From positions 1 to 41,790 of the forward strand of contig NW_021835881.1 of assembly GCF_006345805.1 (NCBI RefSeq): a DNA stretch of 41,790 nucleotides, read 5' to 3'. The DNA is from Octopus sinensis (Eukaryota). Made by a program: the position numbers and the translations under genes. The notes under the pieces are model-generated. The model saw only the letters and a program-made list of their open reading frames with translations, did not search any database and was not told the DNA's origin. This document shows positions 4,570 through 33,033 of this stretch, piece after piece; position 1 is the first letter of the stretch, and every line of letters begins with the position of its first letter.

Positions 4570-4945
4570 GGCGCAGGAGTGGCTGTGTGGTAAGTAGCTT
4601 GCTTACCAACCACATAGTTCCGGGTTTAGTCCCACTGCGTGGCACTTTGGGAAAATGTCTTCTAAAGAAGCCCGTCGCATATAATATATATATATATATA
4701 TATATACATATTGGTGTGTGTGTGTGTGTGTGTTTGTGTGTCTATGTTTGTGCCCCCAACATCGCTTGACAACGGATGCTGGTGTGTTTACGTCCCTGTA
4801 ACTTAGCGGTTCGGCAAAAAAGACCGATAGAATAAGTACTAGGCTTACAAAGTCCTGGAGTCGATTTGCTCGGCTAAAGGTGGTTCTCCAGCATGGCTGC
4901 AGTCAAATGACTGAAACAAGTAAAAGAGTAAAAGAGTAAAGAGAG
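4570..4945 (+). mobile_element. tRNA-derived SINE, family B (internal deletion, internal TA/GT microsatellite)
   Basis: Head GGCGCAGGAGTGGCTGTGTGGTAAGTAGC; 3' end CAGTCAAATGACTGAAACAAG(TAAAAGAG)n. Confidence 0.85.
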
Positions 4946-5099
4946 AGTGTTCTATTATCGGTTTCAGGTAGAGGATGTGGCCATGCTGGAGCATTGCAAT
5001 TAGAGCTAATTCTTGCTTATTTACAACTTATTTCCTGGTTTTATTTCCGGAACCTATCCTGGTGATGTAGTGATCCGCCTTTCTTTGTGTTTCGTGCTG

Positions 5100-5390
5100 T
5101 GATAGGAGTTCAGCTTATCTATCAGATGCACGTCAGGTGGCTTCACAAAAGGTATCTCGTTCATGAAACGTGGTTTCATCTGATTATTCTTCGAACACAT
5201 CCGTATATACACGTCGTACGTTTCTGAGATTGTTTGCCCGAATGTTGAAAAGATGCGAGCCTTTGAACCCTAAGCTGTTACAGTATTGGGTTCTTACACT
5301 GGACGAAGAGGGTATAATCTTCTGTACTATGCAGTGGCGTTCAGTTCGGTGACTGGTATAGTTGTGTACTAGATCCTCTAGGATCACACA
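5100..5390 (-). mobile_element. Decayed C-terminal fragment of a CR1/L2-group LINE ORF2 (second copy ~6760-7050)
   Basis: ILEDLVHN...RTERHCIV...RTQYCNSLGFKGSHLFNIRANNLR...DVF resembles the 'GPxLFNxLPxxLR...FK' C-terminal motif of CR1/L2-group ORF2. Confidence 0.6.
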
Positions 5391-5432
5391 AACTCACGCA
5401 CACACACGTGCGCATGCGCACTCATATACATA

Positions 5433-5805
5433 GGTGCAGGCCTGGCTGTGTGGTTAGAAGCTTGCCTCCCAACCACATGGTTTTGGGTTCAGTCTCACTG
5501 CGTGGGACCTTGGGCAAGTGTCTCCTATTATAGCCTCGATCCAACCAAAGCCTTGTGAGTGTATTTGGTAGATGGAAACTGAAAGAAGCCCGACATACAC
5601 ACACACACACACATACATATATATATATCTTTATGTTTGTACTTGCCACCCACCCCCAACGCTTGACAACTGGTAAATAAGCGCATCGGCAAAAAGGAAC
5701 CGACAGAATAAGTACTAGGCTTTAAAAAAATAAGTCATAGATCGATTTGTTCTACCAAGGTGATGCTACAGTATGGCCGCAGTCAAAAGACTGAAACAGG
5801 TAAAG
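5433..5805 (+). mobile_element. tRNA-derived SINE, family B (duplicated at ~7093-7472)
   Basis: TGGCTGTGTGG A-box, GGGTTCAGTC B-box, TTGGGCAAGTGTCT core, GCAGTCAAAAGACTGAAAC end. Confidence 0.85.
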
Positions 5806-7907
5806 GTAAGTGATAATATATATATACCTGCATTTTTTCGCGTCTTTTTTCAGTGAATAGCCCCTTCCAAGCGTCCGTCTGCTATAGAACTTTATTTAAT
5901 ATCTTGGAATACACATGTCAATGCGTTTTATAAGTTTTCTGTCAGGCTTCGGGTCAATCAAAGCCCTGGGGTTAAACAGGGAAGACAAAAAAAACGTTGT
6001 GAAAGGCTGTCGGATGGAATTTTACCCGTAATTGAAAAGTCCTGTTTTGTCACATGCACTCTGTGTTGCAATGATTCTGGCTATGAATACGAATCATGAT
6101 TGAGTCACGCGGCCATGTTAACATTACATGTTAATGCAAAACGTAGTTAATTCTCTTGATCAAACAGCTGAATAGTCATCGTCGAAATTGGTGGAGATCA
6201 ATTTGTACATAAACACACACACAACACACATAATCGTGTGTGTATATATATATATATATGTGTGGTGTGTGGTGTATATATATATATATATATATATTAT
6301 ATACATATATATATAACACACACACATATGTATATGCATATATATATATATAATATATATATATATACATATTGGTGTGTGTGTGTGTGTGTGTTTGTGT
6401 GTCTATGTTTGTGCCCCCAACATCGCTTGAAACGGATGCTGGTGTGTTTACGTCCCTGTAACTTAGCGGTTCGGCAAAAAAGACCGATAGAATAAGTACT
6501 AGGCTTACAAAGTCCTGGAGTCGATTTGCTCGGCTAAAGTGGTTCTCCAGCATGGCTGCAGTCAAATGACTGAAACAAGTAAAAGAGTAAAAGAGTAAAG
6601 AGAGAGTGTTCTATTATCGGTTTCAGGTAGAGGATGTGGCCATGCTGGAGCATTGCAATTAGAGCTAATTCTTGCTTATTTACAACTTATTTCCTGGTTT
6701 TATTTCCGGAACCTATCCTGGTGATGTAGTGATCCGCCTTTCTTTGTGTTTCGTGCTGTGATAGGAGTTCAGCTTATCTATCAGATGCCACGTCAGGTGG
6801 CTTCACAAAAGGTATCTCGTTCATGAAACGTGGTTTCATCTGATTATTCTTCGAACACATCCGTATATACACGTCGTACGTTTCTGAGATTGTTTGCCCG
6901 AATGTTGAAAAGATGCGAGCCTTTGAACCCTAAGCTGTTACAGTATTGGGTTCTTACACTGGACGAAGAGGGTATAATCTTCTGTACTATGCAGTGGCGT
7001 TCAGTTCGGTGACTGGTATAGTTGTGTACTAGATCCTCTAGGATCACACAAACTCACGCACACACACGTGCGCATGCGCACTCATATACATAGGTGCAGG
7101 CTGGCTGTGTGGTTAGAAGCTTGCCTCCCAACCACATGGTTTTGGGTTCAGTCTCACTGCGTGGGACCTTGGGCAAGTGTCTCCTATTATAGCCTCGATC
7201 CAACCAAAGCCTTGTGAGTGTATTTGGTAGATGGAAACTGAAAGAAAGAAGCCCGACATACACACACACACACACACATACATATATATATATCTTTATG
7301 TTTGTACTTGCCACCCACCCCCAACGCTTGACAACTGGTAAATAAGCGCATCGGCAAAAAGGAACCGACAGAATAAGTACTAGGCTTTAAAAAAATAAGT
7401 CATAGATCGATTTGTTCTACCAAGGTGATGCTACAGTATGGCCGCAGTCAAAAGACTGAAACAGGTAAAAGGTAAGTGATAATATATATATACCTGCATT
7501 TTTTCGCGTCTTTTTTCCAGTGAATAGCCCCTTCCAAGCGTCCGTCTGCTATAGAACTTTATTTAATATCTTGGAATACACATGTCAATGCGTCTTTATA
7601 AGTTTTCTGTCAGGCTTCGGGTCAATCAAAGCCCTGGGGTTAAACAGGGAAGACAAAAACGTTGTGAAAGGCTGTCGGATGGAATTTTACCCGTAATTGA
7701 AAAGTCCTGTTTTGTCACATGCACTCTGTGTTGCAATGATTCTGGCTATGAATACGAATCATGATTGAGTCACGCGGCCATGTTAACATTACATGTTAAT
7801 GCAAAACGTAGTTAATTCTCTTGATCAAACAGCTGAATAGTCATCGTCGAAATTGGTGGAGATCAATTTGTACATAAACACACACACAACACACATAATC
7901 GTGTGTG

Positions 7908-7973
<66 letters not shown>

Positions 7974-8102
7974 TATATAACACACACACATATGTATATG
8001 CATATATATATATATATAATTAGATGTGTATGTGTGTGTATATGTATATGGATATAAATTCATGCATTTATATATGTATATATGTATGTGCATATATACA
8101 TG

Positions 8103-14226: not shown

Positions 14227-14505
14227 ATATATATATATATATATATAAGTTTAACAATTAAGGATAATCTCTTAATAAGGGATTTTAACAAGAAATTATC
14301 GGGTAGCTAGCGTGAAAACCTCATAAAAGAAAAGAATTCGAAAATAATTTTTTTCTTTTGAACAAATTAATTATATCTATATTGTATAGAGGGCATTATT
14401 ACACATAAATGCCTCACACTAGGAGGGACAAAGTCATTACTACCAAAATTATACTAATCATACCCAAATGCAGTTTTTCAAAGCAAGACATTTAAAAATG
14501 AATTT

Positions 14506-14563
14506 AGTTCTGTATCACCGTGATTTCACATTCAACTTACGTCTAATTATCATCAGCAGAACT
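14506..14563 (-). ncRNA. Type I hammerhead ribozyme, array A copy 1
   Basis: AGUUCUG-CUGAUGA-stem II (one extra mismatch versus copies 2 and 3)-GAA-AUCAC(G)GUGAU-A-CAGAACU. Confidence 0.75.
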
Positions 14564-14983
14564 GATTCTGAACACATCATAAATAAACTACCAACCTTAC
14601 GTAGCGAAGACGAACAGACACTGCTCACTCCGGCCAAGCACATGGAACGTTTATAAATCATATATCCGGTAAATGGCGGGCTTTTTACGAACTGCATGTC
14701 GGTAATGAAAAGTATTTCGGAATAAGTTTAACAATTAAGGATAATCTCTTAATAAGGGATTTTAACAAGAAATTATCGGGTAGCTAGCGTGAAAACCTCA
14801 TAAAAGAAAAGAATTCGAAAATAATTTTTTTCTTTTGAACAATTAATTATATCTATATTGTATAGAGGGCATTATTACACATAAATGCCTCACACTAGGA
14901 GGAGGGACAAAGTCATTACTACCAAAATTATACTAATCATACCCAAATGCAGTTTTTCAAAGCAAGACATTTAAAATGAATTT

Positions 14984-15041
14984 AGTTCTGTATCACCGTG
15001 ATTTCACATTCAACTTACGTCTAATGATCATCAGCAGAACT
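14984..15041 (-). ncRNA. Type I hammerhead ribozyme, array A copy 2
   Basis: AGUUCUG-CUGAUGA-U-CAUU-A-GAC(GUAA)GUU-G-AAUG-U-GAA-AUCAC(G)GUGAU-A-CAGAACU. 7-bp stem I, AUA cleavage triplet. Confidence 0.85.
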
Positions 15042-15453
15042 GATTCTGAACACATCATAATAAACTACCAACCTTACGTAGCGAAGACGAACAGACAACT
15101 GCTCACTCCGGCCAAGCACATGGAACGTTTATAAATCATATATCCGGTAAATGGCGGGCTTTTTACGAACTGCATGTCGGTAATGAAAAGTATTTCGGAA
15201 TAAGTTTAACAATTAAGGATAATCTCTTAATAAGGGATTTTAACAAGAATTATCGCTAGCGTGAAAACCTCATAAAAGAAAAGAATTCGAAAATAATTTT
15301 TTTCTTTTGAACAATTAATTATATCTATATTGTATAGAGGGCATTATTACACATAAATGCCTCACACTAGGAGGGACAAAGTCATTACTACCAAAATTAT
15401 ACTAATCATACCCAAATGCAGTTTTTCAAAGCAAGACATTTAAAAATGAATTT

Positions 15454-15511
15454 AGTTCTGTATCACCGTGATTTCACATTCAACTTACGTCTAATGATCA
15501 TCAGCAGAACT
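15454..15511 (-). ncRNA. Type I hammerhead ribozyme, array A copy 3
   Basis: Same sequence as copy 2. Confidence 0.85.
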
Positions 15512-15589
15512 GATTCTGAACACATCATAAATAAACTACCAACCTTACGTAGCGAAGACGAACAGACAACTGCTCACTCCGGCCGTGTG

Positions 15590-19602: not shown

Positions 19603-19657
<55 letters not shown>

Positions 19658-19820
19658 AAGTCAAATTGCGATAAAATAAAAATAATTATTATCGCTGGTA
19701 TTTCTAGCACAAGCCATATATTTTTCATATATCAGTACATTAAGGCGAAATATGTGCTAGGAACACAGAAGCTAGATAAATTTAGTGAAATGAAGATAAA
19801 AACATTTACTAACTCGGTTC

Positions 19821-19894
19821 CTCTTAGACTGCAGTTTCGTTCTTTTCATCAATAAAGATAAATTATTTGCTCAGGGAGAATTCATCGGTAAGAG
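19821..19894 (-). ncRNA. Type I hammerhead ribozyme, array B copy 1
   Basis: CUCUUA-CCGAUGA-long stem II (UUCU/AGAA...)-GAA-ACUGCAGU-C-UAAGAG; GUC triplet. Confidence 0.8.
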
Positions 19895-20217
19895 CCCTGT
19901 TGTTCTGAGATCCTAACTCACTAGAAGCATGTGCTTCTAATGATTTACTCTCTCTAACTAATCAGATCACTGCGCAGACTCCGAACGTCCCGACAAAACT
20001 AGGGATTTCTGGTATATCGTCTAGCGCTCAAAATTTATCGAGAAATATGTAAACAAGTCAAATTGCGATAAAATAAAAATAATTATTATCGCTGGTATTT
20101 CTAGCACAAGCCATATATTTTTCATATATCAGTACATTAAGGCGAAATATGTGCTAGGAACACAGAAGCTAGATAAATTTAGTGAAATGAAGATAAAAAC
20201 ATTTACTAACTCGGTTC

Positions 20218-20291
20218 CTCTTAGACTGCAGTTTCGTTCTTTTCAGCAATAAAGATAAATTATTTGCTCGGGGAGAATTCATCGGTAAGAG
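20218..20291 (-). ncRNA. Type I hammerhead ribozyme, array B copy 2
   Basis: As copy 1, with better distal stem II pairing (AGCA/UGCU, AUAA/UUAU). Confidence 0.82.
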
Positions 20292-20407
20292 CCCTGTTGT
20301 TCTGAGATCCTAACTCACTAGAAGCATGTGCTTCTAATGATTTACTCTCTCTAACTAATCAGATCACTGCGCAGACTCCGAACGTCCCGACAAAACTAGG
20401 GATTTCT

Positions 20408-24984: not shown

Positions 24985-25358
24985 GTTGGTTTGCATCCTT
25001 TTTGTCTTGGGAGACAATGGAGTTGCGCATAAAATAGTCTGGTCCGGCTTTTACATTTCATGTCCTAATACATTCCTGCTGTTACTGTGTAGTCCTATCC
25101 TGGACAAACACTCCTTCTGGCAGGTGCCGCAAATGTAGCGAAGACTGTTCCTGGCTGGTTGTAATGTCATACTTTCTTGTTGACGCCTTTTCTTGTCTAT
25201 CCATTTCTCCTCTCTCTCCCTGTCACTCCTTTGCGTTCCCTCTTTTACGGTACGTTGCCAATCTCCACGGTTGCTGGCAGCTGCTTCCCAGTTGCTAATA
25301 TTGATGTTGCAGGCCTTCATGTCCCTTTTGCAAACATCCTTGTAACGTAAGAACGGTC
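24985..25358 (-). mobile_element. RTE-clade (BovB-like) LINE 3' end in (TA)n
   Basis: RPFLRYKDVCKRDMKACNINISNWEAAASNRGDWQ...YICGTCQKECLSRIGLHSNSR (degenerate C2H2 finger), followed by a short 3'UTR. Confidence 0.88.
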
Positions 25359-25394
<36 letters not shown>

Positions 25395-25406
25395 GTGTGG
25401 TGTGTG

Positions 25407-25447
<41 letters not shown>

Positions 25448-29490: not shown

Positions 29491-29572
29491 CATTGACTAT
29501 ATATATATATATATATACATATATACATTTCTATTACATATATCGTACATATAAATATATATGTTACGCATA

Positions 29573-29641
<69 letters not shown>

Positions 29642-29860
29642 TCAATATAGGGTAGCAAAAATTCAGCAGAAATTATTTTGCTACCAGCGGTCTAGTGAGA
29701 AAAAGGAAATAGTCAGAGACTATTTATAAATTCAACAGCAAATTAAGGAACGGCCATAATAGGCCGTTCAACCCACTAGAAATAACAGCCAAGGCTTCAA
29801 CCGCAAAATAGTAGTAATTCCGTAAATCAGGAGAAAATTAAAAAACCCTTACCCTGTATC

Positions 29861-29958
29861 ACTTATACAATGCATTGTTTCATCGTTTTTTTATGGTAAA
29901 TCACCTGGTTAAATTAAATCAGCTAATCTTCCATAGGCCAACAGATTCATCAGTAAGT
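29861..29958 (-). ncRNA. Type I hammerhead ribozyme, array D copy 1
   Basis: ACUUA-CUGAUGA-AUC.GUU...UAUGG...CCAUA...AAC.GAU-GAA-ACAAUGCAUUGU-A-UAAGU; GUA triplet. Confidence 0.85.
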
Positions 29959-30671
29959 AAGCCAGGAGGGAGAGATATTACACGAGGCAGCACCACTACC
30001 GCTTCGGCAATATCTAACCTAAAATTTTCAAAATCATCGTACTCTCGCGCGCCAATTTATCGGCAGCAAATATAAGCTGCCGATTCCATTTCGGAATTAA
30101 CAGAAAATTCATAATTAATCAATATAGGGTAGCAAAAATTTAGCAGAAATTATTTTGCTACCAGCGGTCTAGTGAGAAAAAGGAAATAGTCAGAAAAACT
30201 ATTTATAATTCAACAGCAAATTAAGGAACGGCCATAATAGGCCGTTCAACCCACTAGAAATAACAGCCAAGGCTTCAACCGCAAAATAGTAGTAATTCCG
30301 TAAATCAGGAGAAATAAAAAAAAACATTTACCCTGTATCACTTTATACAATGCATTGTTTTTAATTTCTAGTGGGTTGAACGGCCTATTATGGCCGTTCC
30401 TTAATTTGCTGTTGAATTTATAAATAGTCTCTGACTATTTCCTTTTTCTCACTAGACCGCTGGTAGCAAAATAATTTCTGCTGAATTTTTTGCTACCCTA
30501 TATTGATTAATTATGAATTTTCTGTTTAATTCCGAAATGGAATCGGCAGCTTATATTTGCTGCCGATAAATTGGCGCGAGTACGATGATTTTGAAAATTT
30601 TAGGTTAGATATTGCCGAAGCGGTAGTGGTTTGTCTCGTGTCTCTCGTAATATATCTCTCCCTCCTGGCTT

Positions 30672-30770
30672 ACTTTACTGATGAATCTGTTGGCCTATGG
30701 AAGATACCTGATTTAATTTAACCCGGCTGATTTACCATTAAAAACGATGAAACAATGCATTGTATAAAGT
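30672..30770 (+). ncRNA. Type I hammerhead ribozyme, array D inverted copy
   Basis: ACTTTA CTGATGA ATC...GAT GAA ACAATGCATTGT A TAAAGT can be read directly on the plus strand. Confidence 0.85.
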
Positions 30771-30899
30771 GATACAGGGTAAATGTTTTTTTAATTTTCT
30801 CCTGATTTACGGAATTACTACTATTTTGCGGTTGAAGAGCCTTGGCTGTTATTTCCGTGGGTTGAACGGCCTATTATGGCCGTTCCTTATTTGCTGTTG

Positions 30900-30934
<35 letters not shown>

Positions 30935-30943
30935 TAATATATA

Positions 30944-30990
<47 letters not shown>

Positions 30991-32636: not shown

Positions 32637-32677
32637 GATTTTAAAGAAACCAACAGGTATGTATATATATATATATA

Positions 32678-32952
32678 ATATTAAATTAGAGATAAAACCA
32701 CTATTAGGCAAATCAAACAATGAAAAACTTAAGCCAATACATAAAATTAATTAATTTATATTATTTTAAATATATATCAAAAATATTAAAAGTTTAATAA
32801 AAAGATAATGAGTGTTTTACTCATTATCTTTTATTTAAAGTTTTAATATTTTTCATATTATTTAAAATAATATAAATTAATTAATTTATGTATTAGCTTA
32901 AGTTTTTCATTGTTTGATTTGCCTAATAGTGGTTTTATCTCTAATTTGATAT
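32678..32952. repeat. Long AT-rich near-perfect palindrome (~135-bp arms, 5-nt loop)
   Basis: AAATTAGAGATAAAACCACTATTAGGCAAATCAAACAATG... / ...CATTGTTTGATTTGCCTAATAGTGGTTTTATCTCTAATTT; centre GAGT-GTTTT-ACTC (32810-32822). Confidence 0.92.
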
Positions 32953-33033
32953 ATATAATATTTTACTATAAATTGGATTCAATCCTAAATCTGATTTTTC
33001 CCTGTAAGTTTGGATTTATTCCCTAATATTTAT

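Follow-up and report, generated by a model that had tools for sequence, protein, structure and literature searches.

Metazoan non-LTR retrozymes, as the available text of two sources describes them (PMC7229834; bioRxiv 10.64898/2026.07.22.740005), are dispersed tandem units, non-coding, a few hundred bp long and low in GC, that carry one type I hammerhead each and co-occur with autonomous Penelope-like elements (PLEs). They are expressed as circles, and PLE enzymes have been proposed to mobilise them, a proposal argued so far from co-occurrence and pLTR homology in the same two sources. In the accessible part of the second, eight of nine Xenopus retrozyme dimers showed no cleavage in vitro. 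The insertions of EN+ PLEs (Neptune and Poseidon), according to the accessible portions of PMC8557442, PMC3846280 and PMC11167929, consist of partial tandems with an inverted, 5'-truncated head-to-head copy and a tail at one end; they lie in AT-rich or (TA)n targets and have a hammerhead upstream of their ends. The inverted 5' copy, the one-sided tail and the microsatellite bias are given as PLE traits in PMC8557442, and the first two are likewise found in PMC3846280. Dimer-active type I hammerheads (available text of PMC4209133, and of PMC3088659 with its Fig. S8 legend) have an intact core, and their palindromic stem III and loop can base-pair with those of a second copy; this palindromic helix III permits cleavage as a dimer. 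Published accounts exist of retrozymes, of hammerheads in PLEs, of tails and of inverted copies, and the octopus repeat reported here shares with each of the three systems the structural features just named. In a literature search covering mostly open-access main texts we found no report of hammerhead repeats or retrozymes in cephalopods, and the word 'ribozyme' is absent from the main text, as available, of a repeat annotation of Octopus vulgaris (PMC13282606).

The window analysed here is the whole of an unplaced, microsatellite-rich contig of 41.8 kb from the 2.72-Gb genome of Octopus sinensis. It contains a two-armed repeat array that we call array D, the features of which are collected in Table 1.

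Table 1. Array D and its flanks, in window positions; for the arms, the strand is that of the ribozyme sense.
Feature	Position	Strand	Remarks
(TA)n microsatellite, left target flank	29498..29637		
Arm 1	29636..30360	-	about 1.5 units
Tail between inner and outer 3' end sites	29636..29735	-	about 100 nt
Complete type I hammerhead	29859..29960	-	palindrome 29867-29878; predicted cut between 29866 and 29865
Half hammerhead	30337..30360 (approx.)	-	palindrome 30347-30358, GUA and 3' stem I; without CUGAUGA
Arm junction, 5'-to-5'	30361..30363		3-nt filler
Arm 2	30364..30899	+	about 1.1 units
Complete type I hammerhead	30670..30772	+	palindrome 30752-30763; predicted cut after 30764
GAACGGCC/GGCCGTTC hairpin	30864..30885	+	about 14 nt upstream of inner end site
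GAACGGCC/GGCCGTTC hairpin, further copies	29748-29769, 30226-30247, 30378-30399		
ATCGGCAGC/GCTGCCGAT hairpin	30059..30084	-	second copy 30542-30567
(TA)n microsatellite, right target flank	30900..30990		

The 3' end of arm 1 is the outer, or tail, site and that of arm 2 is the inner site, without the tail; both adjoin (TA)n. At its 5' end arm 1 is truncated within the GAAA of the upstream hammerhead, and the half hammerhead is the product of this truncation (24 bits with a covariance model of the family). A 480-nt circle would take two cut sites on the same strand; in array D the minus strand offers a full motif and a half motif in tandem. The tail contains a hairpin at 29651-29685 with an A-U/G-U/G-C series among copies. 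A sequence-only reading of this DNA had pointed out two strong hairpins in the unit. Both are present, in four and two copies in array D, and the less frequent one (ATCGGCAGC/GCTGCCGAT) is partly broken in the sister family described below. Array D has no ORF of at least 120 aa and so lacks the RT plus GIY-YIG ORF of an autonomous PLE.

The hammerhead motifs were confirmed at the coordinates of Table 1, and self-cleavage would be expected after H17. As the sequence-only reading had it, there is a complete motif on each strand with the canonical core (CUGAUGA/GAAA), a GUA site and a 12-nt palindromic stem III. The arrangement is that of type I, with CUGANGA, GAAA and UH around three helices and stem I open. 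A scan for high-scoring canonical motifs found four in the window, two in array D and two in an array at 14.2-15.6 kb, and none in any of 25 shuffled windows. With a covariance model trained on copies of the family, the complete motifs of array D both score about 115 bits, by construction. Rfam gave nothing over the window at the gathering threshold, and over array D at E up to 10 it gave chance matches only, with no hammerhead model that fits. The stem II of about 65 nt that had been proposed stood as a distance, with A9 and G12 separated by 65 and 64 nt, but not as a single helix: domain II comprises a base of 3-5 bp, an internal loop and then an inner hairpin of about 18 bp. In most family copies it is 67-68 nt long, and helix II far exceeds the canonical 4 bp. 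The inner hairpin of the copy at 30670-30772(+) is damaged by one deletion and substitutions. The pair 10.1-11.1 is A-U in 30 of 41 aligned copies in place of the usual G10.1-C11.1, which, from the available text of PMC3088659, is common and not obligatory, U-U variants being known. No tertiary contact between loops I and II was identified in the family hammerhead. A 12-nt palindrome, a domain II of 64-68 nt with a covarying base and an inner hairpin of 18 bp, and A-U closure distinguish the octopus motif from the dimer-active type I hammerheads as they appear in the accessible literature.

The sequence-only reading also noted matched indels in stem I, with homopolymer errors as a possible cause. 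ACUUA/UAAGU occurs in one of 72 family hammerheads, within a unit that has 12 and 9 deletion events relative to two chromosomal copies, and the half copy in array D has the normal stem. Seen once and in a deletion-rich unit, this variant is probably a consensus error and not covariation. The matched indel is no evidence of selection; substitution covariation is.

Other repeats were seen elsewhere in the window. At 14245-15584 a second, unrelated 478-bp tandem of 2.8 units follows (TA)n. Its three type I hammerheads all lie on the minus strand, at 14506-14563, 14984-15041 and 15454-15511; they have U-U as the 10.1/11.1 pair and a stem III that is nearly palindromic. A 397-bp tandem of 1.9 units, again after (TA)n, occupies 19648-20407 and has a degenerate hammerhead-like motif near 19805-19845 on the minus strand, with a U3 core and an 8-nt palindromic stem III, which was picked out by eye and lies below the scan threshold. 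An AT-rich fold-back of 295 bp (92%) lies at 32667-32961 near (TA)n tracts; it may be a MITE or another element's head-to-head stub. There is also a 1.66-kb direct duplication with 98.8% identity at 4677-8016, and broken frames at 304-2136 and 25051-25446 (minus strand) resemble what we take to be fragments of LINE reverse transcriptase.

The unit of array D is 478 bp long (a 480-base repeat), non-coding, dispersed and low in GC (35-37%). When 40 of 2,365 candidates were scored, the unit had 96 matches in the genome, spread over many contigs and 86-98% identical. Exact D-type matches number 27, and a degenerate motif pattern has 2,029 genomic matches, with 0 for the reversed control. The first 100 listed of these 2,029 are all of a sister type, a variant that first came up in read data and whose unit of about 490 bp is 82% identical to the D unit. 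Unit length across the two families is 478-492 bp, slightly over the 150-450 bp given for retrozymes in the available text of PMC7229834. Family arrays contain from two to six or more units with intact motifs in consecutive units, and the dispersed copies, as judged from genome matches and mapped arms, do not have the layout of LTR retrozymes. At the family level these are non-coding tandem units each with a type I hammerhead, as expected of a non-LTR retrozyme.

We aligned 41 of 57 distinct hammerheads, excluding indel-rich or near-duplicate ones. In this alignment 95.8% of cells are paired, compared with 29-45% in slid controls, and there are 72 double-sided changes against 27.9 in shuffles, a number reached in 0 of 500. 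The changed-cell count exceeds all 500 shuffles and all slid controls; the number of pairs with a double-sided change (6) is not above shuffles. Four of these pairs are in helix I, one at the base of helix II and one in palindromic helix III, where the A-U/G-U/G-C series is 100% paired. The inner hairpin of domain II shows one-sided changes only and is 97.4% paired, and in CUGANGA the only variable position is N7. Since the covarying changes come from few independent lineages, these counts are to be read as support and not as a probability. The alignment supports constraint on the ribozyme motif, with compensatory changes in helices I-III. The hammerhead fold is predicted to lie 1.4-3.0 kcal/mol above the MFE in six of seven single-arm copies tested, and the plus-strand copy in array D would need 7.0 kcal/mol to reach the active fold. 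For the 12-nt palindrome, the predicted energy of the duplex is -14.5 to -17.5 kcal/mol versus about 0 to +1 for the hairpin, the alternative being a 4-bp monomer stem. The unit itself has a stable predicted fold (z -5.8).

Arms were mapped at 35 D loci and 40 sister loci, the latter made up of 20 picked for divergent motifs and 20 other clusters in coordinate order. Insertions with two arms were found at 48 of these 75 loci, 20 of which had been picked for divergent motifs. In the 47 clusters among the first 100 listed sister matches, 20 were divergent and 0 convergent. At their 3' ends the arms stop at one of two fixed sites, separated by about 100 nt, and (TA)n follows directly. One arm ends at the inner site and the other at the outer site in 43 of the 48 two-armed loci (D, 16/18; sister, 27/30), and in the remaining five one arm ends elsewhere. 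The arms of L216 end at 375 and 385, near inner plus inner. A single junction and flank recurs at five D loci, and another at two sister loci; with such duplicates collapsed, about 39 of 43 insertions follow the rule. By contrast with these fixed 3' ends, the arm junctions and 5' ends are scattered over the whole unit. Of 96 such 5' ends, 5 lie within 6 nt of the ribozyme cut where 2.6 would be expected; this is no enrichment and thus gives no sign of cleavage in the insertions. Arms of exact unit length would be a sign of a circle. A start within positions 1-10 was found for 6 of the 45 D arms (p 0.0003), whose loci had been selected by a whole-unit query of the same register, and for 2 of 67 sister arms (p 0.4). 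Arms are longer than one unit in 34/67 sister and 19/45 D cases and reach about 6.8 units, or 3.3 kb (four duplicate D loci, L190 and L207 were excluded from these arm statistics). Opposite arms of one locus carry the same sequence variant and diverge by 0.8% in the sister family and 2.8% in the D family, compared with 3.5% and 5.8%, respectively, between loci. The target is microsatellite or AT-rich DNA, with (TA)n across mapped loci, within which TSDs are unreadable. The junction of one sister-family insertion has captured 158 nt of unrelated sequence (L195:1527-1684).

The sequence-only reading had likened the direct-plus-inverted layout of array D to that of PLE insertions, and the family bears this out: an inverted, 5'-truncated copy is joined head to head, and the tail is at one end only. 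Relative to the EN+ PLEs of the accessible literature, the octopus unit has no ORF, its tail is about 100 nt long compared with 30-40, and an arm may contain several whole units. Metazoan retrozymes are described, in the text available to us, as direct tandems, whereas the octopus insertions examined are mostly two-armed with fixed inner and outer ends. In the accessible part of the 2026 preprint (bioRxiv 10.64898/2026.07.22.740005) the word 'tail' is absent and 'inverted' occurs in one reference title only.

A chimeric read or assembly error could in principle produce such an inversion, as could a satellite spreading by DNA recombination and fold-back. Array D is on a small unplaced contig with many 1-nt deletions, and no public read contig crosses its junction. 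The latter point is uninformative either way, as contigs from 4 of 24 runs cover parts of the unit, none of those listed bridges the junction and the two 'RNA' runs are possibly DNA. We consider an origin of this kind extremely unlikely. The inversion is a family-wide trait seen at 48 two-armed loci, mostly on chromosome-scale contigs and always 5'-to-5'; the arms are asymmetric, differing in their fixed ends and flanks; and neither chimeras nor fold-back would pick one inner and one outer end.

The genome also contains candidate Penelope machinery. When 150 of 5,029 GIY-YIG candidates were scored, we found intact RT plus GIY-YIG ORFs of 775-781 aa with a CX2-5CXXC linker, the motif from which these autonomous elements are assigned to a Neptune-like clade. 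In their 3' regions hammerhead motifs are followed by (TA)n ends. Type I motifs are present at L079:3854-3910, L080:4343-4395 and L088:3823-3875, and one or two families have a U3-A8 core variant. Two-armed insertions of these elements bear a 38-nt tail on exactly one arm in five of five resolved cases among 30 loci; a sixth pair of autonomous-end matches (L248/L249) has a tail on neither side and a (CA)n end. The octopus unit shares no sequence with 40 sampled PLE loci by blastn, the best matches being 23-33 nt long and chance-level, and a D or sister arm was found at 0 of 30 autonomous-end loci. When the 3' ends of five PLE loci were compared with the D and sister loci, 75 in all, a direct join turned up once. 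At L026:780-1984 (G000:C11, near 55.268 Mb) a D arm exactly two units long meets, 5'-to-5' across some filler, a tailed Neptune-like PLE 3' end, 134 nt of which have 94-96% identity to the autonomous 3' end. Here each arm has an outer end, and on the far side there is no continuation of the host ORF. Being a single case, and with outer ends on both arms, this locus gives only a hint of shared machinery. A diverged relative of the 14245-15584 tandem flanks it.

The insertion anatomy of the repeat is identical to that of autonomous PLE stubs, which would also fit a unit that is the pLTR of an unsampled autonomous Penelope-like family. The arrays would then be truncated copies and not an independently propagating retrozyme, and at the sampling depth given above the parent could be missed. 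This is unlikely, however, given that arms run to about 6.8 head-to-tail units without an intervening ORF and that no arm runs into a PLE ORF in the 75 mapped loci (ORFs were listed for the first 30).

It had further been proposed that a read-through transcript of array D forms long dsRNA and carries a ribozyme whichever strand is transcribed. The first part agrees with the predicted fold, which has 509 long-range pairs on either strand. The second does not, as the same fold sequesters 94 of 101 ribozyme nt on the plus strand and 97 of 102 on the minus strand. Moreover, since the arms are joined 5'-to-5', read-through makes the antisense arm first on either strand. An inverted layout selected as a device, supplying dsRNA for editing or siRNA and an active ribozyme on both strands, would agree with these pairs and with how common two-armed insertions are (48/75 loci, including the 20 picked for divergent motifs). 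We nevertheless regard selection of this sort as very unlikely: the ribozyme is buried in the predicted duplex, the junction points are spread over the whole unit and autonomous PLEs give the same layout. Incidental editing or siRNA production, without selection for it, is possible. With junctions scattered and 3' ends fixed, the inversion is better explained as a by-product of integration.

Array D is very probably one insertion of a dispersed non-coding hammerhead repeat of the non-LTR retrozyme kind. A Penelope-like RT-endonuclease likely mobilised this repeat in trans, and the back-to-back arms are likely an integration footprint and not a dsRNA-making device. In the mechanism that we propose, a multimeric transcript would self-cleave, either as a monomer or as a dimer through palindromic stem III, to yield unit-length RNA that may circularise. 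The PLE enzyme would break (TA)n, and both DNA ends would be primed on the same RNA species, one starting at the inner site and the other at the outer site. The two cDNAs would truncate at random and then be end-joined head to head, so that the inverted layout would be the footprint of integration. Multi-unit arms would require an uncleaved multimer or a circle as template. In the accessible text of PMC11167929, the Poseidon protein, a predicted dimer, cuts and extends both strands of AT-rich DNA, the PLE tail is the stretch between two internal RT start sites, and insertion in vitro does not require cleavage by the PLE hammerhead. For head-to-head PLE repeats, PMC3846280 (in the part available) proposes self-priming on an antisense template. 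The fixed but differing arm ends found here appear to fit twin priming more simply than self-priming. A more specific form of this reading is twin-primed Penelope integration on a retrozyme RNA circle, in which a dimeric RT-endonuclease would prime both ends of the (TA)n break, obligatorily one per start site, and roll round the circle to give multi-unit arms. We put this forward tentatively, as an idea somewhat likelier to prove wrong than right. Among main texts we found no description of twin priming with Penelope and a hammerhead, of so long a helix II in a retrozyme, or of the rule of one inner and one outer end.

Array D alone is an otherwise ordinary mobile-element insertion. The PLE mobilisation of animal retrozymes has been argued from co-occurrence and pLTR homology, and here the octopus retrozyme insertions themselves bear a PLE-specific footprint. 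Their family has more than 2,000 motif matches, and its long-helix-II hammerheads escape Rfam. The rule of one inner and one outer end, together with the mapped ends, leads to exact predictions for TPRT in vitro, and intact candidate enzymes are present in the same genome. If twin priming on a circle is true, it would tie the circRNAs of animal retrozymes directly to the PLE machinery, would give one rule for both the PLE tail and the inverted repeat, and would add a class of long-helix-II hammerheads.
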